Source of the DNA: Candidatus Magasanikiibacteriota bacterium
GTDB taxonomy: Bacteria; Patescibacteriota; Patescibacteriia; Magasanikbacterales; UBA922
Assembly (NCBI GenBank): GCA_041665025.1
Contig: JBAYJP010000001.1
Span: 16,207 to 80,206, forward strand
Reading direction: 5' to 3'
Length of the DNA stretch: 64,000 nt
In this document: positions 6,971 through 63,198 of the stretch, one piece after another
How positions within the stretch are numbered: the first letter of the stretch is position 1
How the letters are laid out: each line of letters starts with the position of its first letter
The notes under the pieces: generated by a model
What the model was told of the DNA's origin: nothing
The model's input: the letters and a program-made list of their open reading frames with translations, nothing else
Database searches by the model: none
Position numbers and translations under genes: made by a program

Positions 6971-7687
6971 ATGAAAGAAAGCCTGATTATCCTCCCCGGT
7001 TGGGGAGGGACAAAAGAAACATGGCAAAAATTTGTTGATATTGCACAACAAGATTTTGATGTACATGTAATTAATTTACCATGTTTTGGCGACGAACCAT
7101 GCCCAGAGGAAGTGTGGGGAGTAGAGCAATATGCTGACTTTGTAAAAAACAAACTCTCCGAACTCCGAACTCCGAACTCCGAACTAATACTGTTAGGCCA
7201 TAGTTTTGGCGGGGCTGTCGCTCTACAGTGTGCAGTTTCAAATCCAGACATGTTTTCAAAATTGATTCTAAGCGGAGCAGCTATATTTAGACCAGAACGA
7301 ACGATACGTAAAATTTTTTTTAAATCGATCGCTCGAGCAGGTATGTATCTATTCAAACTTCCTTTTCTAGAAAAATTTGATTCATTTGCAAAAAAGTTAT
7401 TATACACAGTTGCACATTCTGATTACAATGAAACATCTGGCATAAAGAGAGACATTTTTAAAAAAATTATTGAACAAGATAGGGGAGAGCTTTTACCTCA
7501 AGTCAACATACCTACTCTCCTTGTCCATGGGACGCTTGATACGTATGTCCCTGTGGCGTATGCACGTAGAGCTACAAAATTAATTCCCGACGCAAAATTA
7601 GAAATAATTGACAGGGGAAAACATGGTTTGCATATCCAACAACCTGAACATTTTTATACAGTTATTAAACAATTTGCTGAAAGTTAG
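6971..7687 (+). CDS. Alpha/beta-fold hydrolase (esterase/lipase family)
   Basis: GHSFGG nucleophile elbow, C-terminal D/H. Contains an in-frame (CTCCGAA)x4 heptamer repeat at 7156-7183. Confidence 0.7.
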   Translation: MKESLIILPGWGGTKETWQKFVDIAQQDFDVHVINLPCFGDEPCPEEVWGVEQYADFVKNKLSELRTPNSELILLGHSFGGAVALQCAVSNPDMFSKLILSGAAIFRPERTIRKIFFKSIARAGMYLFKLPFLEKFDSFAKKLLYTVAHSDYNETSGIKRDIFKKIIEQDRGELLPQVNIPTLLVHGTLDTYVPVAYARRATKLIPDAKLEIIDRGKHGLHIQQPEHFYTVIKQFAES

Positions 7688-7690
7688 TAT

Positions 7691-9292
7691 ATGGTTTCAT
7701 CTCTAAACATCACCATTGCTTTTTTTTGGGTCTTAAGCGCTTTTATAGACTACAGCAATCTTTGTTATGTCTGGCAATTGAAATGGTATCGCGTAGATCG
7801 ATTCAAAGATTTTCTTTCGACGGAACAAGGAAAAAGATTTGCCTTTAGCTATACTATTTTTTGGAGATCAGTAGCAATATTTTTTTTCTTCCTTCTACCT
7901 TTTGACAGCGTTCCCACATTTAAGTGGATACTCCTGTTTTTTTATATCATTGATTTTATCCATACATGTCTTGGTCTGTATAGGAGAAAGATAAAACATC
8001 CTACATTTAGCCTGAAGGCAATACTTATTGTCGCGGTTTCCATGATTGTCGAAGCATCCTGGCTCTTATATTCACGTGATTGGTACGTTTTACTTTTTGC
8101 TTTGATATTACGTTTTTTCATCATAGCTATTGTCGTCTTTGTCTTAAATACACTTACTAACCTTATTAAAAAATATTTCTTTTACAGAGCAGAAAAAAAA
8201 TTAAGACACTTCCCAGGTTTGACTGTTATTGGAATTACCGGGAGCTACGGGAAAACGACCGTAAAAGAATTCTTATATCAGATACTTTCGACAAAATTTA
8301 AGGTAGTACGAACTCCAAAAAACGTAAATAGTGATATTGGTATTAGCCGTTTTATTTTATCTACAGATTTTGAAGGTGTTGATGTTTTTATTGTCGAGAT
8401 AGGTGCGTATGCTCGCGGTGACGTACAGCTTGTGTGCGATATTATTCATCCAAAAATCGGCATCCTTACCGCAATCAATGCTCAGCATCTAAGCTTATTT
8501 GGGTCCCTCAAAAATATTCAGGATACAAAATATGAACTTTTACGATCACTGCCAAGAGACGGTTTAGCCATCACCAATTCGGATAATCCATATTGCATAG
8601 AATATATTCATGAGTTGGATTGCAGAGTTGAAACGTTTGGTACAGAAGAAGAAAACAACCCGACCTGTCTTATTACAGACATTCATACAGGACCGCAAGG
8701 CGTGGGAGGTACCGTAAGGTTTAGAAAAGGTAGCGAAATTATAGAAGGGTCAGTTGAAACACATCTTGTTGGTGAACATAATGCGTTAAATGTTGCACCG
8801 TGTTTGTTAGTTGCATCTTTTTTAGGCATGCATCGTAAAGAAAATATGGAAGCTGTCAGAAATCTTAAAAATCCAGAAAATATGCTCCGTATCTATTCAT
8901 ATGGTAGTACGACGATAATTGATGACAGTTACAATTCAAATCCAGATGGTTTCCGCGCGGCATTATTTATACTTTCAAAATATCCCTCACATCGCCGTAG
9001 AATAGTTGTTACTCGAGGAATGCTTGAACTTGGAGATTTAAGCAATGAACTGCATAGACAAATAGGAGGAGAAATCGCATTTATTGGTGATGAATTAGTT
9101 ATTATTACGCCTGACTTCATAGAGCCATTAACGCAAGGTGTTGGTACAAAATACAATACAGAGATTACCATAAAAACAAATCCTGAAAAGCTTGTTGAAT
9201 ACATGAAGAAGTTTAAATCTACAGATAGTGTAATCTTGTTGGAAAATAGAATTCCTGCTGTGTTTAAAAAAGAGTTAGACCAAAAAATGTAA
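7691..9292 (+). CDS. Mur ligase family protein (MurF-like D-Ala-D-Ala adding enzyme) with N-terminal polytopic membrane domain
   Basis: GITGSYGKTT P-loop and IDDSYNSNP C-terminal Mur ligase motif. The first ~170 aa are TM-rich and replace the usual MurF N-domain. Confidence 0.65.
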   Translation: MVSSLNITIAFFWVLSAFIDYSNLCYVWQLKWYRVDRFKDFLSTEQGKRFAFSYTIFWRSVAIFFFFLLPFDSVPTFKWILLFFYIIDFIHTCLGLYRRKIKHPTFSLKAILIVAVSMIVEASWLLYSRDWYVLLFALILRFFIIAIVVFVLNTLTNLIKKYFFYRAEKKLRHFPGLTVIGITGSYGKTTVKEFLYQILSTKFKVVRTPKNVNSDIGISRFILSTDFEGVDVFIVEIGAYARGDVQLVCDIIHPKIGILTAINAQHLSLFGSLKNIQDTKYELLRSLPRDGLAITNSDNPYCIEYIHELDCRVETFGTEEENNPTCLITDIHTGPQGVGGTVRFRKGSEIIEGSVETHLVGEHNALNVAPCLLVASFLGMHRKENMEAVRNLKNPENMLRIYSYGSTTIIDDSYNSNPDGFRAALFILSKYPSHRRRIVVTRGMLELGDLSNELHRQIGGEIAFIGDELVIITPDFIEPLTQGVGTKYNTEITIKTNPEKLVEYMKKFKSTDSVILLENRIPAVFKKELDQKM

Positions 9293-9322
9293 TCCTGTAA
9301 TTTATCAAGTATAACTAATCCC

Positions 9323-11531: not shown

Positions 11532-11539
11532 TTTGGAGT

Positions 11540-12580
11540 ATGAATACATCGTCATATAGTTTAAAGCAGATTATAGACCCTCACGAATGGCAGACTTTTT
11601 TGTTGAAACAAGAATACATGCTCATGACCCAATCATGGAATTATTTTAATTTTTATAAATTGATGGATGAAGAAGCTTGGATTTTTGGGGTATATAGTGG
11701 CGATACACTTGTGGGCGGGGCATTTGTAACAACCGTGCATGCGAAGCGAGGTAATTTTTTATATATTCCATACGGTCCTATTGCCGAAGATAACCACAAA
11801 GTACATGTACTATCTTTATTAACTCAACAGCTTAAAAAAATAGGAAAAGAACATAACTATGTTTGCATTCGCATAAGCCCATTTTGGGATAATAATACTG
11901 ACAATAAAAAATTGTTTGAGGAATTACATTTTCAAAATGCACCCATGCATACGCTTGCCGAGACTACTTGGATCCTTGGTTTGTCTGATGATAGTGAGAC
12001 GCTTCTCAAAAATATGGAGAAAAATCACCGAAATTTGATAAAACGCTGTGAAAAAGAAGGTGTTACCATACAGGTCTCAGATGACATAGGAGAACTTCAA
12101 ACATTCCAGAAACTTCATGATGAGACTGCAAAAAGACATAATTTTGTTCGTTTTCCAAATGAATATATTGAGAAAGAATTCTCATCTTTCAATCCCAATC
12201 ACGAAGTCCTAGTACTATCTGCCTATTTGCCGGACGGTAGGCTTGATTCCTCTGCTGTTGTGTATTTTTATGGCACTATGGCCGCTTATCGTCATGGTGC
12301 ATCGCTTATGCAAGATAAGCGTCTTCCCACGTCGTATGCACTGCAATGGTGTGCAATTAACGAAGCAAAGAAGCGCGGACTTAAGTATTACAATTTTTGG
12401 GGTATTGCCCCTCAGGGTGCTCCTAAAAATCATCCATTCACCGGTATAACACATTTCAAAAAAGGATTTGGAGGTTTTGAAAAAGATCTCTTACCCTGTC
12501 AAGATTTAGGACTCTCATGGAAATACTATCCCATGCAACTATTAGAAAAATTCCGCAAACTCAAACGAGGCTTTTCCTAA
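11540..12580 (+). CDS. FemAB-family peptidoglycan peptidyltransferase (paralog 2)
   Basis: YNFWGIAPQG, FKKGFGG motifs; tandem with paralog 1. Confidence 0.7.
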   Translation: MNTSSYSLKQIIDPHEWQTFLLKQEYMLMTQSWNYFNFYKLMDEEAWIFGVYSGDTLVGGAFVTTVHAKRGNFLYIPYGPIAEDNHKVHVLSLLTQQLKKIGKEHNYVCIRISPFWDNNTDNKKLFEELHFQNAPMHTLAETTWILGLSDDSETLLKNMEKNHRNLIKRCEKEGVTIQVSDDIGELQTFQKLHDETAKRHNFVRFPNEYIEKEFSSFNPNHEVLVLSAYLPDGRLDSSAVVYFYGTMAAYRHGASLMQDKRLPTSYALQWCAINEAKKRGLKYYNFWGIAPQGAPKNHPFTGITHFKKGFGGFEKDLLPCQDLGLSWKYYPMQLLEKFRKLKRGFS

Positions 12581-12595
12581 AGTCTAACCTATAAC

Positions 12596-13624
12596 ATGTC
12601 TGTCCTTCGCAAAGTCTTCAACCATCATAAAATGAAGCGCCAACTCGGTTGGCAGTTTAAGCGTTCCCGATCAAAGGTAAAATCTATAATGGGAACAGAC
12701 AGACATGCTAAGGATTTTTCTTGGCATGGAACAAACGCAAATCCATATCTCGTTCATGACAAAGAGGACAAGAGAATTTTTTTGTATGTAGTAATACTTT
12801 GTGTATCAATTTTAGGTATATTTATTTTCGCAGTATATAGTTCAGCCTTTACTATCAATCGTATTACGATCGGCGGCCTCGAACGTATCTCTGATAATGA
12901 AATGAGAAATGCAGTGCATGGTATTCTTGATTTTGAAATTCTTGGCATACTGCCCAAGCGAGGATATTTCCTTGCAGATGCTGAGGAAATTAAGAATATT
13001 TTAATGAATCGTTTTCCTATTGAACACGTGGTGGTTCAAAAACGTTTTCCTGATAAATTGAATATATTGGTGCAAGAAAAAATATCCCAGGTCATTTATG
13101 ATAACGGAAAGACATATTGTTATATGGACGTGGAAGGAAAGGTCGTTGAAATTATTCGTTCAGTCAGTCAGTATGAATGGGATGAAAAAACCAAAACTAC
13201 AACGAGTACGGATGCACTAGGGAATGAAATAAATACAACTGAAGTTATAGAGAGAAATCACAAACCAGATACTCTTTCAGTAGTTAAAGAGATGGGGAAT
13301 TATCCTGTTATTTATGACAAAAGACATCCTACCATTGAATTGGGGGCTACACCACTCACATCAGATAGGGTAAGAGAGGTCGTTGACTGGTTTAATAATT
13401 TGCGTGATAAAAAATGGTCAACATTGTCATATGTGAGTATTGAAAATGAGGATAATATATACCTACACATGAGACAGGGGAGTTGGTATATCAAAACAAG
13501 ATCCGGGCGTTCTGTAGATCAACAAATTAGCGAAATTGAAACGCTCATTAATCAAAAAATTTTTGATCTTAATTCCTTGGAATATATTGACACAAGATAT
13601 TCAGATAGAATTTATTGGCAATAG
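12596..13624 (+). CDS. Cell division protein FtsQ/DivIB-like (TM anchor + POTRA)
   Basis: Cytoplasmic basic N-terminus, single TM, ITIGGLERISDNE POTRA-like segment; sits in a cell-wall gene context. Confidence 0.5.
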   Translation: MSVLRKVFNHHKMKRQLGWQFKRSRSKVKSIMGTDRHAKDFSWHGTNANPYLVHDKEDKRIFLYVVILCVSILGIFIFAVYSSAFTINRITIGGLERISDNEMRNAVHGILDFEILGILPKRGYFLADAEEIKNILMNRFPIEHVVVQKRFPDKLNILVQEKISQVIYDNGKTYCYMDVEGKVVEIIRSVSQYEWDEKTKTTTSTDALGNEINTTEVIERNHKPDTLSVVKEMGNYPVIYDKRHPTIELGATPLTSDRVREVVDWFNNLRDKKWSTLSYVSIENEDNIYLHMRQGSWYIKTRSGRSVDQQISEIETLINQKIFDLNSLEYIDTRYSDRIYWQ

Positions 13625-13687
13625 CCTATGTAATAAAGATACATAATAGAGGAGAGGATAGGGTTTTTGCTCTGTATATAGTTTGAT

Positions 13688-14141
13688 AGTGTGTCGCACA
13701 ATATATCTTATGCGACACTATATACTATAGAACCCAGTCCACCTGGGTTTCCCTAAGGTGTTGACTCTAGAAATTAACCAATATAGTTGCATAGATTAAA
13801 ACCATACTTCTTATACTAGCTAAGAGAGCCTCTAGCGCAGATGTGTGGAATTATAGTATCTAATTACAAACTCGGGTATATATGATGCCCTGCTAATATT
13901 TTCCGACACAACAAGTTTTTGTTTCAAAAAGGCCAGGTAATCTTGTATGACTTTTTTTAAAAAAAATTACTCCTAAGTTGTGTATTAGCTAGAAAATTTA
14001 AAATATTGTAATAGTATATCTAAAATTAATTTATAAAAAAATATAATAAAATACATGACACACAGACCATGTATTTTTTATAGTATTGTCTCCCCTGTTT
14101 TGACATTTCTAAAAATAGAAGAAATATTGTGCGACACTAGT
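13688..14141. mobile_element. MITE-like non-coding element (~455 bp, AT-rich) with ~18-bp terminal inverted repeats
   Basis: TAGTGTGTCGCACAATAT at 13688-13705 and its reverse complement ATATTGTGCGACACTAG at 14124-14141. Lies between convergent genes and has no ORF >60 aa. Confidence 0.45.
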
Positions 14142-14145
14142 GCTT

Positions 14146-15974: not shown

Positions 15975-17444
15975 TTATAACATGCTAAGAGCGTTCTTAA
16001 CGCGATCGAGTGTTTTTTCTTTACCAAGTGCCACAGCAATCTCGAGAGGGCCTGGGGAATTCTTTTGTCCTGAGAGTGCGACACGCATAGGCCATAAGAC
16101 ATCCCCATTTCCCCATGCCTTCTCTTTAATCCAGGGCAGGATCTGTTTTTCCAGTGTTTCCTTAGACCACTCCCCCTCTAAACTATTCAAAAATTCAAGC
16201 AATGCGATTAATTTTTCTTTTGTCTGTTCTTTGGTAGATTTTTTCCACACAAGAAGTTCTGCTTCGTAGTCTAGTGTATTGGAAAAAATGAATGTGACAT
16301 TTTCTACCAGTTCGACAAGAGTAGACGCTCTCCCCTGCTCCAGTGCAACTACATCCCGAATCCCGAATCCCGAATCCGGAATCTTAAGACTTTCTTTTTC
16401 AAAAAAAGATTTACATCTTTCCGCTAGCTCTGCAGAATCAAGACTCATAATATACTGCTTATTGTACCAATTCAATTTTTCACGATTAAACACAGCCGCA
16501 GGCTTATGTACTTTACTAAAATCAAATTCCTTTTCAAGTTCTGCCAAACTAAAAATTTCTTTTTCTCCACCAGGGTTCCAACCTAAAAATGCAATAAAAT
16601 TAATGATTGCTTCTGGTAGATAACCTTTCTGTTTAAAATCTTCAACTGATACGTCTCCATGTCGTTTACTTAATTTTTGTTTTTCTTCATTTATAAGCAT
16701 GGAAAGATGGCCGAACTGTGGCAATTCCCAACCAAACATGTTGTATAAGGTAATATGCTTAGGTGTTGAAGGCAACCATTCTTCACCACGGATAACATGG
16801 GTAACTTCCATAAGGTGGTCATCTACAACAACGGCTAAATGATAAGTTGGGAATCCATCAGCCTTAACGAGAACTTGATCATCGGCTAATTCATTCTTAA
16901 ATTCAACTTTCCCTCGTACCATGTCGTCTACGACCGTAACCCCAGTTTTTGGCATTTTCATGCGCATGATACACTTCTCCCCTGCCGTAACGCGTTTTTG
17001 AGCCTCTACAACGTCTAAATCTCGACAATGACCATCATAACCCGTAGGCATTTTATTTAATTCTTGATATTTTCTAACTTCCTCAAGACGTTCTTTACTA
17101 CAAAAACAATAATATGCATGACCTTGCTCAATGAGCTGATTAGCGTATTTTTTGTAAATATCCAAACGCTGTGATTGTATATATGGCCCTTTATCACCTT
17201 TTTGAATAACTTTTCCTTCATCATTTACATCAACGCCTTCATCAATACTAATTCCTGCCCATGTGAGTGAATTAATCATATTTTCAGTGCCACCCTCAAC
17301 AAATCGCTCCTGGTCAGTATCTTCTATACGCATCATAAAGATACCACCATTTTTTTTGGCAAATAAATAAGAATATAGAGCAGTACGAAGACCTCCTACA
17401 TGTAGAAAACCGGTTGGACTTGGGGCAAAACGTGTTTTGATCAT
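15975..17444 (-). CDS. gltX: Glutamyl-tRNA synthetase
   Basis: Class I HIGH-like motif (PSPTGFLHVGG) and KLSKR motif. Contains an in-frame (TCCCGAA)x3-4 heptamer repeat at 16354-16381. Confidence 0.9.
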   Translation of the reverse strand: MIKTRFAPSPTGFLHVGGLRTALYSYLFAKKNGGIFMMRIEDTDQERFVEGGTENMINSLTWAGISIDEGVDVNDEGKVIQKGDKGPYIQSQRLDIYKKYANQLIEQGHAYYCFCSKERLEEVRKYQELNKMPTGYDGHCRDLDVVEAQKRVTAGEKCIMRMKMPKTGVTVVDDMVRGKVEFKNELADDQVLVKADGFPTYHLAVVVDDHLMEVTHVIRGEEWLPSTPKHITLYNMFGWELPQFGHLSMLINEEKQKLSKRHGDVSVEDFKQKGYLPEAIINFIAFLGWNPGGEKEIFSLAELEKEFDFSKVHKPAAVFNREKLNWYNKQYIMSLDSAELAERCKSFFEKESLKIPDSGFGIRDVVALEQGRASTLVELVENVTFIFSNTLDYEAELLVWKKSTKEQTKEKLIALLEFLNSLEGEWSKETLEKQILPWIKEKAWGNGDVLWPMRVALSGQKNSPGPLEIAVALGKEKTLDRVKNALSML

Positions 17445-18568: not shown

Positions 18569-18607
18569 CCCCCACCAGTGTTTTCACTTGGTGGGGCTTC
18601 GTTTTTA
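18569..18607 (+). terminator. Rho-independent terminator (plus-strand orientation)
   Basis: CCCCCACCAGTG-tttt-CACTTGGTGGGG hairpin followed by TTCGTTTTT. Confidence 0.6.
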
Positions 18608-19366
18608 AGGAGCTTTTTTAAAAACATTTAAAAATAAAAAAAATAATGTTGCCTTTATTATTCTCCCTATTCGCTTTGGTTCATATAATAACCGAAACAA
18701 CCACTCCAAACCAATTTTTCTCATCCATGCCGGAGCTCGTTTCTTCATGCCTGCAGTATAGTCAAATGCTCCGCCGACACCCATTGCAATTTTTACACTT
18801 GGCAAATCTTTTAGATTCTCATGAATCCATCTTTCTTGCTTCACATGCCCGAATGCGATGAACAATATATCTGGCTGAGCCATGGTTATCTCTGCTATTA
18901 ATTCATCGTTTTTTTCTTTATCATATTTTAATTGGTAATTAGCAACTAGTAATTTATGTCCCCGGTGAAGCCCAGCGATTTTTAAATTTGGGAACTTATT
19001 TTGAATTACTAATTTCAAATTACTAATTACCTCAGAGCTGTCTGACCCAAGAAAATAAACTGAATACTTTTTTTGTTCAGCAAGTTTGCATATATCCAAC
19101 ATAAAATCTACGCCGGGAATTCGCTCTATCTTTTCTCTTGAAACAAGTTGTATACCTCGTCCATCACAAATATTTAGATCACTTGAGTTGAGAATATCCT
19201 TAAATTCTCTATCTTTTTGGGCGTCAACGAGCATTTCAGGATTGGGTGTAAATATCTTATATTGTTTGTTAGATTCTAAAAATTCAGCAACCTTCTGAAG
19301 TGCTTTTGATTTATCTAGTATATCAATACGAACATCTAAAATTTTTATAAAATCCTGGTTCATCAT
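18605..19366 (-). CDS. WecB/TagA/CpsF-family glycosyltransferase (N-acetylmannosaminyltransferase-like)
   Basis: Family pattern throughout (ICDGRGI...AFGHVKQERW...GVGGAFD); an internal Met is taken as the start. Confidence 0.75.
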   Translation of the reverse strand: MMNQDFIKILDVRIDILDKSKALQKVAEFLESNKQYKIFTPNPEMLVDAQKDREFKDILNSSDLNICDGRGIQLVSREKIERIPGVDFMLDICKLAEQKKYSVYFLGSDSSEVISNLKLVIQNKFPNLKIAGLHRGHKLLVANYQLKYDKEKNDELIAEITMAQPDILFIAFGHVKQERWIHENLKDLPSVKIAMGVGGAFDYTAGMKKRAPAWMRKIGLEWLFRLLYEPKRIGRIIKATLFFLFLNVFKKAP

Positions 19367-19427
19367 GGAAATTCTAGTAATCTGTGTTTTGTAAAATTTT
19401 GAACACAGACCACCAAGATCGCCAGGA

Positions 19428-19991
19428 TCAACCATGATTTGTCAATCGATAACTCTCCACTATTGAATAGGATGATCCTTCAATAGTCAGTTTACTCTCC
19501 ATAATCTCTATCGAATCAACCTGCCATGACACATTTTCTAAAACGATATCTTGTAACCCAGCCAATTTGAAACCCATCTTATTTCTTCCAAGCGTTATAT
19601 GTGGCTTCCAAATCTTTAAATCGACACTAATCCCCTTATTAACCAAAGCATCGGTTAATTCTTTCTGTAAACGATTACTGATTCGAGAATGATCAAAAAC
19701 TTTTGCTATAATAACTTTTGGATGTTGTAAATCTGGAAATGCATCAATTTTATCAAGCTCAAATGAGATGGAGTTATATTTTATTGCGAGGTCTCTTACT
19801 TTTTCCCTTACTATATCAAGGATATTATCCTCAATTTCTCCTAAAAATTGTACTGTGATATGAAGTCCATCCAGGTTTGTCCAATTCACGCGGATATGTC
19901 TATTTTTATCTTTAAGGGTGTTCTGTACTATTTCCAGTGCTTCTTTTGCCTTATCGGATATATAAAAAGAGATAAATATCCTTCTTGACAT
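19428..19991 (-). CDS. 2H-family RNA 2',3'-cyclic phosphodiesterase / 2'-5' RNA ligase (LigT/ThpR)
   Basis: Two H-x-T/S-x motifs (LHITVQFLG, PHITLGR). Confidence 0.7.
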   Translation of the reverse strand: MSRRIFISFYISDKAKEALEIVQNTLKDKNRHIRVNWTNLDGLHITVQFLGEIEDNILDIVREKVRDLAIKYNSISFELDKIDAFPDLQHPKVIIAKVFDHSRISNRLQKELTDALVNKGISVDLKIWKPHITLGRNKMGFKLAGLQDIVLENVSWQVDSIEIMESKLTIEGSSYSIVESYRLTNHG

Positions 19992-20083: not shown

Positions 20084-20183
20084 TACTCCCTAGTCCAGTC
20101 TTGACTTACTGATTACGGATAATACTGATTTACTGATGATAATTTATATCCGTAAATCAGAGTTATCTGTAATCCGTAAACAT

Positions 20184-44183: not shown

Positions 44184-45035
44184 ATGAAAACTAGAATTAT
44201 TGATGGAAAGGCAATTGCGGAAAAAATCCTCAAAAAACTTTCCCGCCACGTTGCACAGCTCAAAAAACAAGGCATACAACCAAAGCTTGCGGTTGTTTTT
44301 GTGGGAAAAAATAAACCTTCAAAAACATATATTAGACGCAAACGGGAGGCGGCCGAAAAAGTCGGCATTGATTTTGCCTTGCACCATTTTCCTGCAGACA
44401 TTTCCAAAGATGTATTAATTAAGAATATTGTAAACATCCAAAAAGATAAAAAACTCAATGGGCTTATTGTCCAACTGCCTCTTCCTGAACCGCTCTACAC
44501 AACTGGTGTATTAAACGCAATTAAGCCAGAGCTTGATGTTGACTGCCTTACTGACGCACAATTGGGAAAATTAGTCATGAATACTTCTTATATCACTCCC
44601 CCAACCCCCACAGCGGTCTGTGCTATTTTGGATGAACTTCACATTGATCCAAAAGGAAAAAATATTACTATCATTGGCGCTGGTGCACTTGTGGGCAAAC
44701 CTTTATCTATTATGCTATCCAATATGCAAGCCACGGTAACGCTCTGCAATAAATGTACCAAAAATATCAAAGAAAAATGTTTGCATGCAGACATTATAGT
44801 AACTGCAGTTGGGAAAAAAGATTTGCTCACGGCTGATATGGTAAAAAAAGATGCAATTGTCATTGACACTGGCATTGTATTTGAAAAAGGAAAGATGTAT
44901 GGTGATGTAGACTTTAAAAATGTTTCAAAAAAGGCTTCAGCCATAACACCTACCCCGGGTGGTGTGGGTCCCATCACGGTCGCACTTTTGCTACAGAATG
45001 TCATCACTATTGCAAAACAAAAGATGATGTTATGA
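44184..45035 (+). CDS. folD: Bifunctional methylene-THF dehydrogenase/methenyl-THF cyclohydrolase
   Basis: FolD family pattern (IIDGKAIA...YIRRK...GAGALVGKP...PGGVGP). Confidence 0.9.
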   Translation: MKTRIIDGKAIAEKILKKLSRHVAQLKKQGIQPKLAVVFVGKNKPSKTYIRRKREAAEKVGIDFALHHFPADISKDVLIKNIVNIQKDKKLNGLIVQLPLPEPLYTTGVLNAIKPELDVDCLTDAQLGKLVMNTSYITPPTPTAVCAILDELHIDPKGKNITIIGAGALVGKPLSIMLSNMQATVTLCNKCTKNIKEKCLHADIIVTAVGKKDLLTADMVKKDAIVIDTGIVFEKGKMYGDVDFKNVSKKASAITPTPGGVGPITVALLLQNVITIAKQKMML

Positions 45036-45745
45036 AAATAGTTATCGTCATCCCCACATACAACGAAAAAGAAAATATTGAAAAATTAATCAAAAAAATT
45101 TTTGATTTAAAAATTGATGGACTGGAACTCTTAGTCGTTGATGATAATTCTCCTGACGGCACAGCCCAAGTGATATATAATCTTCAATCTTCAATCTTCA
45201 ATCTTCACATATTAAGACGCAAAGGAAAACTGGGTTTGGGGTCCGCGTATATTGCTGGTTTTAAAAAGGCGTTAGAGCTCGGGGCTGACTATATTTTTGA
45301 AATGGATGCGGACTTTTCACACGACCCTCTTGATATCCCGCGTATGCTCAGAGCAGTTCAAGACGCAGATTTGGTCATTGGCTCGCGTAAGGTTGAGGGA
45401 GGAAAAATCACTGGCTGGGGTTGGTTTCGTACTTTTGAGAGCAATGGAGCTATGTGGTTCTCGCGGTTTTTACTTGGACTCAAGGTGCGAGACGTGACTG
45501 CTGGATTTCGCTGTTTCAAGCGTGATGTCTTGCTTTCGATTGGTCTAGATTCAATAAAAAGTAATGGCTATGCCTTTCAAGAAGAACTTTTATATCTTAC
45601 CCAAAAAGCCGGCTTTACCATCACTGAAATCCCTGTTATATTTAGAGATAGAAGGGAAGGAAAATCCAAATTAAGTAAAAAAGATATAATTGAATTTTTT
45701 ATAAGAATAATTAAACTTCGATTTTATGGTAGAGACGAGCGGTAA
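45032..45745 (+). CDS. GT2 polyprenol-phosphate mannosyl/glycosyltransferase (Dpm1-like)
   Basis: VIVIPTYNE, DDNSPDGT, DADFSHDP motifs. Contains an in-frame (AATCTTC)x4 heptamer repeat at 45179-45206. Confidence 0.8.
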   Translation: MKIVIVIPTYNEKENIEKLIKKIFDLKIDGLELLVVDDNSPDGTAQVIYNLQSSIFNLHILRRKGKLGLGSAYIAGFKKALELGADYIFEMDADFSHDPLDIPRMLRAVQDADLVIGSRKVEGGKITGWGWFRTFESNGAMWFSRFLLGLKVRDVTAGFRCFKRDVLLSIGLDSIKSNGYAFQEELLYLTQKAGFTITEIPVIFRDRREGKSKLSKKDIIEFFIRIIKLRFYGRDER

Positions 45746-46197: not shown

Positions 46198-47217
46198 CTA
46201 TATTTCTTCCACTATTTCTTCTATTTCTTCAATTGTATTCACTCGTACCAATTTACTCCGAATCTCTTTCATTCCTTCCAACCCTTTAAAATAAAAAGCT
46301 AAATGTTTCCGCAGTCCTACTATTCCCCTTTCCCCATAGTGCTGAATTTGAAGTTGAGCATGACGTAATATCACATCTTTTCTTTCTTGCAACGAAATTA
46401 GTGATCGATGATTAGCAATCGACGATAACAACCAGGGGTTCCCCAAGGCTCCTCGTCCAATCATTACTCCATCTGCTCCGGTCGTCTCTAAACATCGCTC
46501 AATATCTTCAGGCGAAGTAATATCTCCATTCGCTATCACGGGTATTTTAACACACTTCTTCGCCTCCCCTATCATCTCCCAGTTTGCCTTTCCACTATAG
46601 CCCTGGACTTTTGTCCTTCCGTGGATCGAAAGAGCATCAACACCAGCCTGTTCTAGCTTTTGCGCAAATTCCAGTATTTCACCTTCTTTAGACCATCCAA
46701 GACGGGTTTTAACACTTATAGGAACCCCCAAATTGGCGTTTTTGAGGGCTTTTACTATCTCTACCGCCCTATTGTGGTCTTTCATAAGCGCAGCGCCAGA
46801 ATCAGCCTTTCCAGCTATTTTCGGAACAGGGCAACCCATATTGATGTCTACCCCAAATTCATCCCGAGCGGAGCGGAGCGGAGAGAAGGGTCTTTCGAAG
46901 GATTCCATTTTTGGATTAAAAAATTTCTCTGTAATAATACGAGCCGCTTCTACAATCACCTCCGGCTTACTTCCAAACAACTGTAACACAATCGACCTCT
47001 CAATTTCTTCAAACTTGCACATGTTTAATGTCTTTTCATTGCCACGCACAATCGCCTCTGCACTAACCATTTCTCTAAAAATTATAAATTCTTTATGTAT
47101 TCCTTTTTCCTTTTTCCTTAATTCTTGTACCTCTCTACATAATATCGAAAACGGCTGATCTGTATAGTCAGCCATAGGCGCGAGAGCAATGATTGGTTTG
47201 TTTTCAATCCATGTCAT
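46198..47217 (-). CDS. tRNA-dihydrouridine synthase (DusB-like)
   Basis: FMN-binding TIM barrel (LAPMADYTD, NMGCP, catalytic Cys region). Contains (GAGCG)x3 at 46866-46880. Confidence 0.8.
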   Translation of the reverse strand: MTWIENKPIIALAPMADYTDQPFSILCREVQELRKKEKGIHKEFIIFREMVSAEAIVRGNEKTLNMCKFEEIERSIVLQLFGSKPEVIVEAARIITEKFFNPKMESFERPFSPLRSARDEFGVDINMGCPVPKIAGKADSGAALMKDHNRAVEIVKALKNANLGVPISVKTRLGWSKEGEILEFAQKLEQAGVDALSIHGRTKVQGYSGKANWEMIGEAKKCVKIPVIANGDITSPEDIERCLETTGADGVMIGRGALGNPWLLSSIANHRSLISLQERKDVILRHAQLQIQHYGERGIVGLRKHLAFYFKGLEGMKEIRSKLVRVNTIEEIEEIVEEI

Positions 47218-48035
47218 ATATCAAGCGGACTTTTTATTTCTGCTAAATTATTCCTCGCCACATGCGTATAAATCTGTGTCGTTTGCAACTTCGCATGACC
47301 CAATAGTTCTTGAATATACCTGATATCTGTCCCGTTTTCAAGCAAATGAGTAGCAAAACTATGGCGCAAAGTGTGGGGAGAGACTTTTTTTCTCAAACCA
47401 GCTTTTTGCGCCGCCTGCGAGACAATTTTTTGTATTGTCGCCTCAGTCAGCCTTTCTCCTCTTCCATTGGTAAAAAGAAAGTCATCTTTATTTTTCAACC
47501 CAGCTTGGACTTCCAAAATAGATAACAATTTTCTAGGCAATACAACCAGCCTATCTTTCTTACCCTTACCTTGAAACACCCTCAACATTTTTCTATCTAT
47601 ATCAATATCACACATCTTGATATGTGTCAGTTCACTTACGCGCACTCCGGTACCATACAATAAACTGATGATACAATTATGTTTGGGGTTGGTAGTCACC
47701 TCTATCATTTTATTCACTTCTTCTTTTGATAAAACAACGGGTAAATACTTATTTTTCTTAGGTTGCTTGATATGTAAAAAAAAATTTCTTTTCCAAATCT
47801 GGCCATAATAAAAATGAAGAGCGTTGTAAGCTACTGCAACGGTACTAGAAGAAACTTTTTGTCCCAAATAATCTAAATAATTTTTAATGTCCTCGGTATT
47901 AGCTTCTCGCGGATCTTTCTGGCAAAACCGCAACAACTCTTCATTATAATGAACATAAGAATCAATAGTGCTTCGACTATAGTTACGGATCCTCAATTCT
48001 CTTTCTAAATTGGAAAAAGTATTGTTTTCCAACAT
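47214..48035 (-). CDS. Tyrosine site-specific recombinase (XerC/D / integrase family)
   Basis: R...HxLRHSFATHLL...LLGHAKLQTTQIYTHV catalytic R-H-R-Y constellation. ATGA overlap with dusB; divergent from the downstream array. Confidence 0.8.
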   Translation of the reverse strand: MLENNTFSNLERELRIRNYSRSTIDSYVHYNEELLRFCQKDPREANTEDIKNYLDYLGQKVSSSTVAVAYNALHFYYGQIWKRNFFLHIKQPKKNKYLPVVLSKEEVNKMIEVTTNPKHNCIISLLYGTGVRVSELTHIKMCDIDIDRKMLRVFQGKGKKDRLVVLPRKLLSILEVQAGLKNKDDFLFTNGRGERLTEATIQKIVSQAAQKAGLRKKVSPHTLRHSFATHLLENGTDIRYIQELLGHAKLQTTQIYTHVARNNLAEIKSPLDI

Positions 48036-48302
48036 ACTTAGTGATAAAATATCATCAACCTATACCCTACTGGGGTATAAGCAAAAATTCACAAAAATTA
48101 TAGCATAACTAAGCCTTTTATGCCAAAAGTTGGCATAAAGGTAGTTAGGCGAAATATTCCTTTTCTTTTTTGGGCTATCGCCCAATTGTTTTAAAAAATT
48201 TTAAAATTTCTTTTTCATTAATTAAAGAGGGGAAAAAGGTGTTTTCTCCGCTCCGCTACGAAAACGATTTATTTATAAGGGGAAAACTAATACAATAACC
48301 AC

Positions 48303-57795: not shown

Positions 57796-57828
57796 AATCT
57801 TCCTATTCGGGGAGATTTTTTATTTTAT
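57796..57828 (+). terminator. Rho-independent terminator/attenuator at the 3' end of the riboswitch leader
   Basis: TCTTCC-tattcg-GGGAGA followed by TTTTTTATTTT, 9 nt before the downstream ATG. Confidence 0.5.
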
Positions 57829-57836
57829 TACTCACT

Positions 57837-58343
57837 ATGAAAAAACTACTCCTATTGTTTTCATTACTGGTCTTATTGAGTGGATGTTCTTTGCAAAAGA
57901 CTATAACACAACCATCAGTGAACAACGAGCAACAAGCAACTAGAACAAACAACAACCAACCGTCGAACGCTGATAATCGATCGTCAATTACCTCTAATTA
58001 TGAGTTACCCGTTACGAGTACACAAAAAACCATAGATACTCCAACACAAATAATCATCCCCGAGACACAACTCAAAATCAACAGCATCATCTATCCCCTC
58101 ACCCCAGGCAAAAACGTCTATGATGCGATGGCAGAACTTTCCCAAGTTTCATCACAACCCTTTATATTTTCTACCAAAAATTATCCAGGCATGGGACAAT
58201 TTGTAGAAGAAATAAATGGGATTAAAAATGATTTCAAGCAAAACAAATACTGGATTTATTACATCAACAACAAATCAGCCATCGCGGGCATTTCACAATA
58301 TATTATTCAGCAGGGGGACATAATCGAATGGAAGTATGAATAA
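57837..58343 (+). CDS. DUF4430-domain lipoprotein (transcobalamin beta-domain-like B12-binding module)
   Basis: Lipobox LSGCS. C-terminal pattern GQFVEEINGI...KYWIYYINN...GDIIEWKYE typical of DUF4430. Confidence 0.55.
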   Translation: MKKLLLLFSLLVLLSGCSLQKTITQPSVNNEQQATRTNNNQPSNADNRSSITSNYELPVTSTQKTIDTPTQIIIPETQLKINSIIYPLTPGKNVYDAMAELSQVSSQPFIFSTKNYPGMGQFVEEINGIKNDFKQNKYWIYYINNKSAIAGISQYIIQQGDIIEWKYE

Positions 58344-60045
58344 TAAATGCAAAATGAAAAATGCAAAATGCAAAATTTTCCTTATATTATTAATTACTTT
58401 GGCTGCTATATCTACACCGGTGTATGCCGAAGATGTTACAGAAGAAAATTTAGATGAACAAATTGATGAAACTCCAATAATATTAGAAGAAACACCATCT
58501 ACTCTGCCAGAAGAAGAACAGCCGACTGAAATACCTGAACCAACACTTGATCCGGAACCAAATCTAGAGCCAGAAGTAGAAGAAACGCTAGAACTCACTC
58601 CACCGGTTGAGGAAACTCCTCAAATAATCATGGAGACTATAAGCCAAAGCCAGATACAGAAAGCCGTAGATAAACTTTTAACATATCTAGAATCAGAGCA
58701 ATCCGAAGATGGAAAAATAATGGATGGTACCATTACTGATTGGTCAATACTTTCTTTTGGCGCCAATGAACAATACGCAGATGACATAAAAAATGGCACG
58801 TCCTCTCTTTTGGATTACGAAAAAAAATATAATTTGGATGATCCAAGCGATTTAAATTCATGTGCAACCTATCCGCGCCATATCCTTGCATTACTTGCTG
58901 CAGGTGTAGAGCAGACAGATTTCGCGATTATAGGCCTCAAAGAAAAAATGAATACCGTTTGTTATGCACATGGCATGTATGGATTACATGGGATTAATGA
59001 TGATGTATTTGCTTTACTTGCACTTTCTGCGCTTGATACAAGCCAGTCAGAGCCAATTATACAAGATATTGTCTCTACCACGCTGTCATGGCAAATAGAC
59101 AACGGTGCTTTTTCCTGGCCCGACTGGATGGACCCAAATCAGAAAGTCGCTGGGGATGATATTACTGGTGCGACCATAAATGCATTGACATATGCGAAGT
59201 CAAAAGGAGCTGTAATTTCTGATGACGTATTTTCCCAAGCAAAAAACTATTTGAAGACAACTCAACAAATGGACGGCGGATGGGGCTATGGATCGTCTGA
59301 TATTATGACTACAAGCTGGGTGCTTATGGGTATCAACTCGATGCAAGAAACTCAGCAAGATTGGTTTGTGACGTCTACAGGTAAAAACCCATGGCATCCA
59401 TTAGTAAATAATGTAAAAACAGATGGATTTTATGAATCTGCCTGGACGCCTGGTACGGTAGATTGGTTTGCCATGAAACACGCGGTTCCGGCACTGCTTC
59501 AAAAATCTTGGCCAATCATTTTGACTCCAAAAATAACTGACTTTTCTAAAGACACGACATTTACGTATGGTGGCGGAGGAGGTATTTCTCCAACTCCAAC
59601 TTCAGTGCCTACCACAACTATTGATATAGCTACAACAACCCTGCAAATTCTAGAAATAATCATACCCACCTCTACTCCAACATCAACAGTGAAAATTATA
59701 GAAACTCCGACAAGTACACCAACCACGACAATTGAAATACTGACAGAGCACACTGAAAAAATATCCAAAGAAATTGTGGTCCCCAACATAGAGCCTAAAA
59801 TCAAACCCGCATCAGTTCTTGGAACACGTGTTGTGGAACCAAAGAAGGATGAGCTAGCGCAAATTGACAAGGAAAAAAATACCAATACACCAGTAATTGA
59901 TGAAAATATTTTGGATGAAAAAATCCAGGCTGAAAATACCAGCCAAAGCCCTTTTTCAAACAAAAAAATGATACTTGGAGCTGGCATACCGCTCGGTGGG
60001 CTCTTGGTATATCTTGGTTTGAAATTCTCAAAGATAATGGTATAA
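58336..60045 (+). CDS. Surface-anchored protein with prenyltransferase/terpene-cyclase-like alpha-alpha toroid repeats, acidic and T/P-rich linkers, C-terminal TM anchor
   Basis: Signal peptide, QMDGGWGYGSSD-type repeats, TPTSTPTTT linkers, C-terminal hydrophobic helix. The first ~40 nt are an ATGCAAA-type heptamer repeat with ATGs in several frames, and the likely start is 58354 (MKNAKCKIFL...). Confidence 0.55.
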   Translation: MNNKCKMKNAKCKIFLILLITLAAISTPVYAEDVTEENLDEQIDETPIILEETPSTLPEEEQPTEIPEPTLDPEPNLEPEVEETLELTPPVEETPQIIMETISQSQIQKAVDKLLTYLESEQSEDGKIMDGTITDWSILSFGANEQYADDIKNGTSSLLDYEKKYNLDDPSDLNSCATYPRHILALLAAGVEQTDFAIIGLKEKMNTVCYAHGMYGLHGINDDVFALLALSALDTSQSEPIIQDIVSTTLSWQIDNGAFSWPDWMDPNQKVAGDDITGATINALTYAKSKGAVISDDVFSQAKNYLKTTQQMDGGWGYGSSDIMTTSWVLMGINSMQETQQDWFVTSTGKNPWHPLVNNVKTDGFYESAWTPGTVDWFAMKHAVPALLQKSWPIILTPKITDFSKDTTFTYGGGGGISPTPTSVPTTTIDIATTTLQILEIIIPTSTPTSTVKIIETPTSTPTTTIEILTEHTEKISKEIVVPNIEPKIKPASVLGTRVVEPKKDELAQIDKEKNTNTPVIDENILDEKIQAENTSQSPFSNKKMILGAGIPLGGLLVYLGLKFSKIMV

Positions 60046-60169
60046 TGAAGTTGTAAAGTTCAAAGTTATAACGTTATAAAGTTTTGGAAAACCAATGCCA
60101 ACTCCAAAATTATTAACTTATAGCTCTATAACTTTACAACTTGGAACATTATAACTTTCAACTAAAACT

Positions 60170-60562
60170 ATGCTTAAACATAAAATTTCATCTCTAAGTT
60201 TAATCATTATAGCGGTTAGTTTATTTATCACCGGTTGTGGCAATAGTCTTGTCAAAGGTGACAAAGAATACACCTACACACTCAATGTAAAAAAATCACC
60301 AACAAATGTCACTGCCATGGAATTAACCTCAACCGCAAAGGAGATGTCGCTTGGGTCAGCCATAACTGAATTAAAAAACTCAGGACAGCAGATCGCCTTG
60401 GCTGATGAAACAACCGAATACATGCGCGTGACAGAGATGCTCGGGGTCATCAATACCCAAGGCAAGCAATGGCATGCATATGTGAATAATACTAAAATTG
60501 AAGATACTAATTTGGGAGTTGCTATTAAACCAGACGATAATATTGAATGGAAATATGAGTAA
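60170..60562 (+). CDS. DUF4430-domain lipoprotein, paralog 2
   Basis: Lipobox ITGCG, same C-terminal ...NIEWKYE ending and pattern as 57837-58343. Confidence 0.55.
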   Translation: MLKHKISSLSLIIIAVSLFITGCGNSLVKGDKEYTYTLNVKKSPTNVTAMELTSTAKEMSLGSAITELKNSGQQIALADETTEYMRVTEMLGVINTQGKQWHAYVNNTKIEDTNLGVAIKPDDNIEWKYE

Positions 60563-61118
60563 ATCATCACGTATCACATATCACGTAACACATAACAAAC
60601 ATACATTATTTATTTTGATGTTAATTGTTGTTGGAATAAGTGCACGACTTTTGCCACATCCAGCGAATTTTAGCCCCGTGGCAGCTTTAGCGATATTTGG
60701 GTCATTGTACTTGCCACGAAAATGGGCGCTTGTACTGCCTTTGTCTACCATGTTTTTGAGTGATAGTATTATTGGATTTTACTCATGGCAAATCATGGCA
60801 AGTGTATACGCATCTTTTATTGCTACAGGCCTCCTCGCACTCTGGGCACGAAAACACAAGACATTTAGAACAGTCTTAGGTACAACGATTTTTGGATCAA
60901 TTATATTTTTTCTCGCCACAAATGCGGCAGTATGGGCATTTGGAACTATGTACGTACAGAATTTCTCCGGACTTTTACAAAGCTATTACATGGCACTCCC
61001 CTTTTTCCGCAACAGTTTATTAGGCGATTTATTTTTTGTGGGTATGTTGGTTGGTTTGGCTGAATTTATTTTACAAAAATCTAAAACCTACTCACTAACT
61101 AAACTATATGAGCGATAA
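60555..61118 (+). CDS. Small polytopic membrane protein, candidate ECF-type substrate-capture (S) component
   Basis: ~170 aa, 5-6 TM. Start overlaps the DUF4430 stop (ATGAGTAA), suggesting translational coupling. Confidence 0.35.
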   Translation: MSKSSRITYHVTHNKHTLFILMLIVVGISARLLPHPANFSPVAALAIFGSLYLPRKWALVLPLSTMFLSDSIIGFYSWQIMASVYASFIATGLLALWARKHKTFRTVLGTTIFGSIIFFLATNAAVWAFGTMYVQNFSGLLQSYYMALPFFRNSLLGDLFFVGMLVGLAEFILQKSKTYSLTKLYER

Positions 61119-61305: not shown

Positions 61306-61316
61306 AAAATTATAAT

Positions 61317-61345
61317 AAAACCACCCTATCAAGGTGGTTTTTACT
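61317..61345. terminator. Bidirectional rho-independent terminator
   Basis: AAACCACC-ctatcaa-GGTGGTTTTT. Confidence 0.6.
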
Positions 61346-61356
61346 ATGAACTCAAA

Positions 61357-62781
61357 TTATCCAAACTTCTCAAACTCAATCTCCTCGCCTGTATCAGTCT
61401 TAAACTTCGGCGCTGTATCCACTTCTTCAGTTGGTGCAAAAGTAGGTGCATCATATATAGCTTCCACAGGCAATCCCGCAGGGGGTTCGGCAGATTTGAC
61501 TGCAGCTTTTTGGATCATAGGCGTCTTCACATGAGACATGGGGAAATGCCAAATAGTTGCAAGCTCTTCAATATTCAAGACATATGGATTTGCGCCAATT
61601 TTGATCTTGCGTTTTTTGTATGCTTTCATAAGTACACTCTTTCTTCTGTTTGCTTTCACCACATTGCGGAGCCCTGTATGCACTTTCTTTACAATTGAAT
61701 TTGCGCTTGGAATATTGAACTGATTAATAGCACCAATAAGCGCATTTACACCGCGGGTCGGACTGAACACTTCCTTTCTTCCAATATATATACCACGAAT
61801 TTTTGTTTTAAATCCAATTTTTGCCATTTTTTCTTCCATAAGTTCAACCACTTTTACCTGGCCGGGCGTCATATATCTCAGTTTGTTTGGATCTTTTTTT
61901 ACCTCATGAGCTTCTTCTGCTTCAAAATTACCCCCACTCAGTATCTGAGCATTGACTTCACTCAGACCCTTTTTAAGCTCATTCATAAGTGGGTTATCCA
62001 AAATATGACCCATAATACCCTTTCCGTGTTTTTCTTCTTCTCCTATTAGTTCTTTCACTTGTTTAATTGCCTTTTCTTTCCAATGATTGTTTACCGGTTC
62101 AACAATAATTTGAAGCCACATCTGTTCTCCATGCCCAATGCGCGTGAAACTTTCTAGTAGCGTCCCCATTGGATCTTTCAAGACCGTATCCTTTGAAATA
62201 TTATGCTCAAATTCACGGTATGAACGTATAGGAAATGCATCATTCTCTGCCAAAGCAAAATCCGCTGCCCAGATATCATAATCATCATTCGGAAATGAGT
62301 CTGGCACAGTAGAGACATAATCTTCTATTTCTACTATTTCGGCTTCTGGGTACTGTGCATAAATAGTTGTCTCAATAAGATCACGGAATGCTACCTCTGT
62401 CCACACAATAAATTGTATATACCCGCCAATGCTTACAATCTCAAAACTAAAACAACGCTGTTTGAATCCATCTCTAAATTTCTCACGCAAATCAGGATTA
62501 TTGAGAGACCCTGCCAAATGCGCAAACATTTGTTCAACTGCTTTAGGCGTTTGCACATTGAGTTGGGGAATATCTATCGCAAGCACGACATATTTCCAAT
62601 CATGCATAAATTTATTTTCCCGTAATTTCGCATACAGATTAATCCCTGCGTAAAACAACAGATAAACCAAAACAAGCCACCCGCCAATAGCAAATACTCG
62701 AATAACAATCTCAAACGCTGTTGACTGCTCAAGAAATGCGATAATAAGTGCCACGTCAATTGTGAATGCGCCAAACTGCAT
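61357..62781 (-). CDS. Hypothetical membrane-anchored protein (474 aa)
   Basis: Two N-terminal TM helices, large soluble domain with no recognised motif. Confidence 0.5.
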   Translation of the reverse strand: MQFGAFTIDVALIIAFLEQSTAFEIVIRVFAIGGWLVLVYLLFYAGINLYAKLRENKFMHDWKYVVLAIDIPQLNVQTPKAVEQMFAHLAGSLNNPDLREKFRDGFKQRCFSFEIVSIGGYIQFIVWTEVAFRDLIETTIYAQYPEAEIVEIEDYVSTVPDSFPNDDYDIWAADFALAENDAFPIRSYREFEHNISKDTVLKDPMGTLLESFTRIGHGEQMWLQIIVEPVNNHWKEKAIKQVKELIGEEEKHGKGIMGHILDNPLMNELKKGLSEVNAQILSGGNFEAEEAHEVKKDPNKLRYMTPGQVKVVELMEEKMAKIGFKTKIRGIYIGRKEVFSPTRGVNALIGAINQFNIPSANSIVKKVHTGLRNVVKANRRKSVLMKAYKKRKIKIGANPYVLNIEELATIWHFPMSHVKTPMIQKAAVKSAEPPAGLPVEAIYDAPTFAPTEEVDTAPKFKTDTGEEIEFEKFG

Positions 62782-63198
62782 ATATAGTAGTCAATTTGAA
62801 AGACAAAAATTTTTTATAATGTACGAAATACGAAAGCTACGAAATATACAAAACTTCATTAAATTATTTCGAATTTTCGAAGTTTTCGTATTTCGTATAT
62901 GCTCTTTAGACATCGACCAATTTGAAAATAATCGGGTACAGCACAAGCACGCCCAAAAATGTCCACCACCAGCCAATAGTTCCTGAAACAAAACCTGCAA
63001 AATAAACAACAGCCAAAATAAGTACCGCAATGACGGTAACTAAATGGCGAATGACGGAATCGCTCATAAAATTAGTTCTTAGTTCTTAGTTCACAGCCAA
63101 TAGGTCATATTTTCTATTGGCTAAGAACTATTGGCTATGAACTTAATTATAGCACAAAACAAAAAAGCCCCCAAGGGGGCATATGATGTATAAGAGGA

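Follow-up and report, generated by a model that had tools for sequence, protein, structure and literature searches.

Short tandem repeats, most of them with a seven-nucleotide unit, are scattered through a 64,000-nt stretch of a Candidatus Magasanikiibacteriota genome (assembly GCA_041665025.1, contig JBAYJP010000001.1, positions 16,207 to 80,206; hereafter the window), which has a GC content of 37% and is about 89% coding. The alpha/beta hydrolase, gltX, dusB and GT2 polyprenol-phosphate mannose synthase genes named in a first-pass annotation of this sequence were all confirmed, as were the arrays that it had listed: every one is present within about 5 nt of its given coordinates (Table 1). 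A (CTCCG)x2 repeat placed at 48241 is indeed present, but begins 5 nt further on. Tandem Repeats Finder (TRF) adds five period-7 arrays (starting at 19004, 47100, 57923, 58345 and 60566) and three period-8 arrays (20102, 60048 and 62867) that had not been listed before. The description of the coding arrays as in-frame holds in that the open reading frames (ORFs) stay open; the array lengths, however, range from 20 to 38 nt and are multiples of neither 3 nor 21. Exact matches to the window gltX protein occur on two contigs, one of them a metagenome contig of 282,756 nt (ENA ERZ27249449) and the other from Logan, and the nearest genome in the species collection is that of Candidatus Magasanikbacteria UBA11699, with a GltX identity of 81%.

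Table 1. Tandem arrays and associated features of the window (window coordinates; strand is that of the host gene for coding arrays).
Feature	Position	Strand	Context
(CTCCGAA)x4.3, perfect	7156-7185	+	alpha/beta-hydrolase coding sequence 6971-7687; encodes LSELRTPNSEL
(ATCCCGA)x4.4, one variant unit	16353-16383	-	gltX (15975-17444); coding strand ATTCGGG; encodes KIPDSGFGIRD, variable loop
Degenerate heptamer array, AAATTAC TAGTTGC TAATTAC CAATTAA (coding strand)	18928-18955	-	variable loop of WecG/TagA-family glycosyltransferase (18605-19435); 14/21 lag-7 matches
(AATTACT)x3.9, 80% matches	19004-19030	-	WecG helix; encodes VISNLKLVI
(TGATTTAC)x4.5, period 8, weak (73% matches)	20102-20137		intergenic, directly upstream of clpB
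(AATCTTC)x4.1, perfect	45179-45207	+	GT2 polyprenol-phosphate mannose synthase (45032-45745); encodes NLQSSIFNLH
(GAGCG)x3.6, pentamer, + strand AGCGGAGCGGAG	46866-46883	-	dusB (46198-47217); coding strand CTCCG
(TTCCTTT)x2.9	47100-47119	-	dusB; encodes LRKKEKGI
XerA/integron-integrase-like tyrosine recombinase gene	47214-48035	-	between the two pentamer arrays
(CTCCG)x2.4, CTCCGCTCCGCT	48246-48257	+	intergenic
(CAACAAG)x5.6, 78% matches	57923-57960	+	DUF4430 protein (57837-58343), linker after lipoprotein signal peptide
(AAATGCA)x4.6	58345-58376	+	codons 4-14 (MNNKCKMKNAKCKI) of 569-aa protein (58336-60045)
(AAGTTATA)x4.6, period 8, imperfect	60048-60083		intergenic
(ATCACAT)x4.1, or 14-mer x2.1	60566-60594	+	N-terminal tail of membrane protein (60498-61118)
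Intergenic hairpin	62819-62900	-	arms (TACGAAA)x3 and (TTTCGTA/TTTCGAAT)x3; 26-nt arms, 88% complementary
(TACGAAA)x3.3, with indel	62822-62846		in hairpin 62819-62900
Period-8 array (TRF)	62867-62893		
Intergenic hairpin	63069-63148	-	arms contain (TTAGTTC)x3 and (CTATTGGCTAAGAA)x2.1
(TTAGTTC)x3.0	63072-63092		in hairpin 63069-63148

The period-7 arrays are far more numerous than expected by chance, and the excess is confined almost entirely to that period. Four perfect arrays of at least three copies have a period of 7 in the window, against 0.00 expected from 100 first-order Markov simulations, and none has a period of 6 or of 8 to 15. With TRF scores of at least 36, nine period-7 arrays are found versus 0.09 per triplet-block shuffle (maximum 2, n = 200), while other periods mostly lie near expectation, with small excesses at 5, 8, 13 and 14 (1-3 arrays each). 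The lag spectrum of exact repeats of at least 9 nt has a single peak, at lag 7. Lag-7 exact repeats number 0.11-0.19 per kb in the window and related genomes, compared with 0.02 per kb both in the outgroups and in the other Magasanikbacteria. Period 7 outnumbers each neighbouring period both in the window and in nine related genomes. The register is mostly, not strictly, 7, since period-8 arrays occupy sites of the same sort as heptamer arrays do. Tandem units of 5-11 nt in excess of compositional expectation, with period 7 dominant, are what defines the long simple sequence repeat class LSSR(5-11), and the window shows both traits. An AT-rich genome and a contig produced by a metagenome assembler might suggest chance, low-complexity composition or an assembly artefact, but we judge this explanation already refuted: besides the result of the shuffles, the arrays are reproduced in the Logan assembly, arrays occur at orthologous sites in species assembled by different groups and pipelines, and the encoded peptides are conserved. 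The earlier suspicion that the arrays are non-random is thereby borne out. Its proposal of a shared ..CCGAA/..CGAAA core is not: CCGAA occurs 36 times in the window versus 41 expected, with 7 of these occurrences inside two arrays, and the array units of relatives lack it. We treat this core as a coincidence.

For comparison, the orthologous regions of twelve Magasanikbacteria were collected via gltX, and those of seven further relatives via the GT2 protein. Arrays are dense in the window (14.1 period-7 arrays per 100 kb), in the gltX regions L003 and L004 (16.2) and in the GT2-syntenic set (L036, L038, L039 and L120-L123; 21.5), whereas the density is 1.9 in the ten other Magasanikbacteria (L005-L014) and 1.4 in 21 non-CPR (candidate phyla radiation) outgroup sequences. 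The bias therefore belongs to some lineages within the phylum, and together with the period excess these densities support a repeat-generating bias acting across a lineage, as had been supposed, rather than a handful of isolated accidents. The bias does not follow GC content. The three records L004, L006 and L008 are titled 'uncultured Gammaproteobacteria bacterium', although their gltX regions are 66-71% identical to, and syntenic with, those of Magasanikbacteria; these labels look wrong.

A metagenome scan with the GT2 protein retrieved only relatives of at most 62% identity, mostly from gut and rumen, which were of no use for orthologue comparison and served only as an incidental control set. 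These contigs (about 1 Mb) also show a period-7 excess, of 10 arrays per 100 kb, in agreement with the literature: heptanucleotides are the most abundant class of long simple sequence repeats (SSRs) in many bacteria, according to Mrazek, Guo & Shah 2007 as summarised in PMC4679880 and PMC4692102. Heptamer arrays are plentiful between the genes of the gut and rumen contigs L045-L119 (45-55% GC), often as convergent pairs, and their copy number can differ between samples; a (TCAGTAA) array has 5.9 copies in L077, L087, L106, L109 and L112 and 3.9 in L095 and L097 (L077 10733-10773 versus L095 9055-9081). L044, a 100-kb metagenome contig whose GT2 protein is 57% identical to that of the window, holds (CTATCCC)x22.4 at 5546-5702, with several further heptamer arrays within 2 kb. 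Our literature search found no report of heptamer arrays in CPR bacteria.

The unusual feature of the heptamer-rich Magasanikbacteria is the high density of arrays within genes. In the ten genomes concerned (193 kb: the window, L003, L004, L036, L038, L039 and L120-L123), about 24 of 34 arrays are coding (~70%), a count that includes one L120 array really lying in the dnaX 5' untranslated region (UTR). Per 100 kb this corresponds to 14.5 arrays in coding and 43 in non-coding DNA, a ratio of about 3, as compared to ratios of 16-50 in the other sequence sets. Coding density is 3.3 in the gut and rumen set (ratio 21) and 0-0.3 in the remaining sets, but 5.3 in the small set D. As first proposed, the hosts include essential housekeeping genes, among them gltX, dusB, dnaX and fmt; core glycosyltransferases carry arrays as well. 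Within the proteins, arrays fall in variable loops (gltX, WecG), in linkers (DnaX, the DUF4430 lipoprotein) and in N-terminal tails (the proteins with arrays at 58345 and 60566, and the L004 hydrolase). The array of the window hydrolase immediately precedes the GHSFGG nucleophile elbow, and that of GT2 spans a helix end, a loop and the start of a strand (helix 44-52, strand 58-62; AlphaFold model, predicted local distance difference test score (pLDDT) ~95). The coding arrays have a median of 4.3 copies.

Non-triplet repeats inside coding sequences and at 5' ends, such as codons 4-14 at 58345 or the lipoprotein linker at 57923, recall contingency loci, in which unit number drives a phase-variation switch. 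The neuO gene of Escherichia coli K1 is built on exactly such a design: a 5'-AAGACTC-3' heptamer is repeated in tandem within the coding sequence, three units equal seven residues, and read-through depends on the frame (PMC13001214). However, neuO has 3-53 copies that vary between and within strains, with 65.6% of genomes out of frame, and is a dispensable phage-borne gene for surface modification (PMC13001214). Here the tracts are short (2.9-5.6 copies, mostly 3-5), invariant and in frame in all the assemblies compared, the available populations being nearly clonal. Many of their hosts (gltX, dnaX, dusB, fmt, core glycosyltransferases) are essential or central rather than dispensable genes of the surface or of host interaction, and arrays stand mid-gene in structured regions, as in the GT2 model. 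We therefore consider phase variation a highly improbable explanation.

Seven protein sites bear arrays in two to four genomes each, usually with unrelated units. At residue 353 of GltX, ATTCGGG in the window and GACTTCA in L003, the closest relative, occupy shared codons; at residues 62-66 of the hydrolase, CTCCGAA in the window corresponds to an AAATCAT-like unit in L004; and at residue 361 of DnaX, L121 has AGCCATA and L122 has AATAAGG. Around residue 138 of WecG, the degenerate AAATTAC array of the window is homologous to (ACAAGTT)x4.6 in L004, and in the same loop L003 carries a perfect 8-mer array, (AGATCAAA)x3.8 (L003 8553-8582). A second GT2 protein (GT2b) has arrays at residues 42-51 (AAGTCAA x5 in L039, AATTTTG x4.3 in L036, AAATCAK x5 in L121) and, in three genomes, at residues 112-122. 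At residue 50 of the first GT2 protein (GT2a), one unit, AATCTTC, is shared or decayed: the window has it perfect, L038 with a single mismatch, and L123, L036, L120 and L122 in decayed form. Over this array the window and L038 agree at 28/30 nt versus 71.6% in the rest of the gene (P = 0.004), with 8/10 third positions identical versus 50% elsewhere; the array is thus conserved, or re-homogenised, at the DNA level, and the encoded peptide is conserved too. In the WecG helix array the unit GTAATTA is not stop-free in tandem, and, reading the sequence by eye, the mismatch in its third unit sits where a perfect unit would yield an in-frame TAA, so that this array looks as perfect as the reading frame permits. 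Recurrent sites may represent old arrays inherited with turnover of their units, or repeated filling of the same permissive windows.

Two further observations concern the GT2 locus. In the GT2 gene of L039 (6168-6260), the ancestral AATCTTC array is interrupted by a 36-nt in-frame insertion. Although the gene is AT-rich otherwise, this insertion holds a GC-rich mini-palindrome, CCGTCCGAAGGCGG. Beside the FolD-GT2 locus of one relative lie a Rep gene (REP_ORF2-G2P/RepSA-like) and a large serine recombinase gene, the other copy having an N6/N4 DNA methyltransferase gene (L036 959-3737, L037 52-2368); this cluster resembles an element that has integrated, here at the end of a contig.

Altogether, the 34 arrays comprise about 30 different units without a common motif, and the majority are coding rather than intergenic, so that they do not form a single-unit dispersed family. 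That nearly every site has a unit of its own speaks for a local copying process and against both mobile elements and binding sites. Footprints of transposons and mobile mini-elements were considered and ruled out, given the site-specific units and the unchanged length.

At two intergenic sites, the palindromic regions reported earlier prove to be true long hairpins with arms composed of the arrays, with folding energies of -24.7 kcal/mol (z = -4.7) for 62819-62900 and -31.4 kcal/mol (z = -6.5) for 63069-63148. These strong folds, the presence of a dnaX 5' UTR array in two species, the conservation of the GT2 array at the DNA level above background and the regulatory roles proposed for heptamer repeats elsewhere (PMC2700814, PMC4679880) would all fit functional cis-elements under selection, be they sites for cold-shock-protein-type heptamer binding, Geobacter-like regulatory elements or terminator and attenuator hairpins. 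As a general explanation this seems improbable, since units vary by site, and by species within a site, leaving no common binding specificity, and since most arrays are in genes at positions set by protein tolerance; it could fit only a few intergenic arrays. A regulatory or structural role is possible for both hairpins and for the dnaX 5' UTR array. The pentamer array of dusB and the intergenic pentamer array contain exact 12-nt reverse complements of each other (AGCGGAGCGGAG and CTCCGCTCCGCT) and flank the tyrosine recombinase gene together with the 5' part of dusB; the pair may be a coincidence of two low-complexity arrays or a recombination substrate.

This lineage allows an unusually clear look at the process: since the genome is compact, arrays land in conserved genes, where orthologues show what each array replaced. 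The perfect 30-nt array of the hydrolase aligns without gaps to the array-free L007, L010 and L011, the (GACTTCA)x3.7 array of L003 gltX leaves the codon number equal to that of six array-free orthologues, and the WecG helix array (19004) shows no gaps against ten orthologues; the net change is 0 aa in all three cases. The GT2 array, compared with 21 homologues, and the second-GT2 arrays of L036 and L039 add 0 to +1 aa, and the window gltX array adds +2 aa. A gain of 7 aa, as three extra heptamers would give, is seen at no array site compared with array-free orthologues, and homologous coding arrays differ in length between genomes by 3, 6 or 9 nt, not by multiples of 7. On these alignments, coding arrays appear mostly to replace sequence rather than to insert it, which argues against simple unit-by-unit slippage as their origin. 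Length differences of 6, 15 and 27 nt were also considered as '7k +/- 1', but the cases are too few to be distinguished from chance.

The first-pass annotation had interpreted the arrays as slippage insertions prone to gain or lose units. Classical slipped-strand expansion would turn one heptamer into four by a gain of three units (+21 nt, or +7 aa), which is the only step that stays in frame, and would leave an array still prone to change. Slippage is the accepted mechanism for SSRs (PMC4679880), coding arrays do have near four copies, that is 1+3, non-coding arrays vary in copy number across species, and the dusB arrays lie in insertions. It was the copy number of about four that prompted the '+3 units = +7 aa insertion' idea, which the orthologue alignments rule out: four or five sites show no change in length at all, the remainder being off by 1-3 aa. 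Moreover, a lone heptamer offers no repeat to slip on, and independent assemblies show no difference in copy number. For the coding arrays we thus regard slipped-strand expansion as unlikely.

On this last point, the Logan assembly is 100% identical to the window over 7,912 nt that include two arrays, and for the L122 species five assemblies, made from different samples, agree at 99.99-100% without any indel. No copy-number difference at coding arrays was found between independent assemblies of the window organism or of the L122 species, and hence no sign of ongoing unit gain or loss, but this is weak evidence against hypermutability because the populations are nearly clonal. Clusters of array-bearing proteins at 90% identity are all singletons and hence uninformative on copy-number polymorphism. 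Conversely, the dnaX 5' UTR has (TTATTCC)x8.3 in L120, x4.6 in L121 and none in L122, a change in copy number between species that points to real slippage where frame is irrelevant.

We propose that these arrays stem from a mutational bias peculiar to certain lineages of Candidatus Magasanikbacteria, namely polymerase misalignment in a 7-nt register that is mostly length-neutral in genes, a reading to which we give about an even chance of being correct. During replication or repair synthesis, the polymerase would misalign with its template by 7 nt, occasionally by 8 or 5 nt, which would both generate short tandem arrays and hold their units alike. In non-coding DNA such misalignment would lead to ordinary gain and loss of units. 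In genes, a 7-nt change in length would break the reading frame, and the surviving events would mostly be length-neutral: the misaligned strand would copy a few bases from the adjoining unit and then realign. The unit would thereby replace the sequence beside it, by templated substitution of several bases or by conversion between quasi-repeats, and nothing would be added. Selection would purge arrays that damage the protein, leaving survivors in variable loops, helix ends, linkers and N-terminal tails; arrays would extend to the nearest constrained residue, their boundaries falling at conserved residues because selection limits them to permissive segments, and would recur or persist at the same sites across species. 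We infer the misalignment-realignment step, its 7-nt 'ruler' and a responsible enzyme from these patterns. A stronger form of the proposal, tentative and in our view rather doubtful, is that some activity in replication or repair, bound to a 7-nt register, replaces DNA on the spot by uniform copies of a local heptamer, length unchanged, and would continually rewrite permissive segments of about 10 residues in housekeeping proteins that are conserved elsewhere.

Several points weigh against misalignment in a 7-nt register. DusB has three insertions (9, 9 and 10 residues) relative to the distant orthologues L040 and L041, two of which hold its heptamer array (+9 aa) and its pentamer array (+10 aa, 30 nt); expansion therefore occurs as well. 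Several array sites vary by 3, 6 or 9 nt among genomes, and the orthologues are 50-81% identical in protein, so that multi-step histories, with an expansion and a deletion of equal size, are possible site by site. Permissive sites alone could produce positional recurrence. No conversion event was directly observed, realignment past several mismatched bases asks much of the mechanism, many directed steps are needed to reach a perfect array of 30 nt, and the data name no enzyme and give no reason for a register of 7. Finally, the sample is small (~190 kb, ten genomes) and its genes were called by a crude longest-ORF rule.

Length-neutral perfection of repeats has precedents. Dislocation mutagenesis, that is misalignment-realignment, and quasipalindrome correction (Kunkel; Ripley) reportedly produce clustered substitutions that perfect an imperfect repeat while leaving its length unchanged, the behaviour that we suggest for the coding arrays. 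Such mutagenesis is known at individual mutational hotspots in phage, E. coli and yeast. We know of no account in which it acts across a whole genome, in a fixed register of 7 nt, and shapes protein sequences.

Other known systems resemble the arrays in part. As with the LSSR(5-11) repeats of Mrazek 2007, heptamers dominate the periods, are patchy by lineage and differ in unit from site to site; from what later papers relay of that study, however, those repeats belong mainly to large genomes (Burkholderia, Xanthomonas, cyanobacteria, actinobacteria) and are mostly intergenic, non-triplet units being disfavoured in coding DNA (PMC4679880, PMC4692102), whereas here the host is a small-genome CPR bacterium, ~70% of the arrays are coding, and these are length-neutral relative to orthologues. 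The GGGACCG elements of Geobacter metallireducens also consist of about four tandem heptamers within and between genes, but keep one conserved unit at all 49 sites, like a dispersed element (PMC2700814), while in the Magasanikbacteria nearly every site has its own unit. Cyanobacterial short tandemly repeated repetitive (STRR) sequences, the GGGAATC-type repeats of Xanthomonas and Nostoc and the TAACTGA repeats of Beggiatoaceae are likewise lineage-enriched heptamer arrays, some of them convergent pairs that form inverted repeats like the hairpins at 62.8-63.15 kb; these families differ in having one or few units, an overwhelmingly intergenic location and tens of copies (PMC4692102, PMC4679880). 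Borg elements, which likewise belong to an uncultured lineage, also carry perfect and recent tandem repeats of independent origin that rewrite parts of proteins, but their in-gene units are divisible by three and add amino-acid repeats or disordered regions (PMC9879509), in contrast to the 7-nt units (some of 8 or 5 nt) and the retained length described here. A heptanucleotide excess, in-gene four-unit elements as in Geobacter (PMC2700814) and an in-gene variable number tandem repeat as in neuO (PMC13001214) are thus of a kind already known; what is new, as far as the searched literature shows, is that arrays are so dense in coding DNA, that they leave length unchanged and that their sites are conserved while the units turn over.

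None of the ten largest unassigned ORFs of the window is a replication or repair gene able to explain the bias; they include BipA, an HlyD-like protein, a MacB/FtsX permease, an ABC ATPase, a PPDK-like protein and a class II tRNA synthetase-HD fusion. The last of these (1686-3779) is an unusual 697-aa fusion of an Asp/Asn/Lys-type synthetase (OB fold and tRNA-synt_2) with a C-terminal HD domain. At about 12000-14000 the cumulative GC skew flips sign where genes turn from the plus to the minus strand, which could be a replication origin or terminus, or a mere strand switch.

The heptanucleotide excess of bacteria has been known since 2007, and its cause remains a guess about the polymerase: the explanation put forward by Mrazek and colleagues, as relayed in PMC4679880 and PMC4692102, is polymerase-linked slippage with a footprint of about 7 nt. 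In practical terms, such arrays cause misleading local divergence in protein alignments and phylogenies of CPR bacteria. If the in-place 7-nt activity proves true, array sites would be inherited over the long term while their unit sequences turn over, and the process would be a previously undescribed mode of genome-wide templated mutagenesis and of protein-loop evolution. It would provide a sequence signature by which the enzyme might be traced through the comparison of heptamer-rich and heptamer-poor sister lineages, and would act as a mutational force on the permissive parts of proteins, rewriting them in blocks of seven residues.

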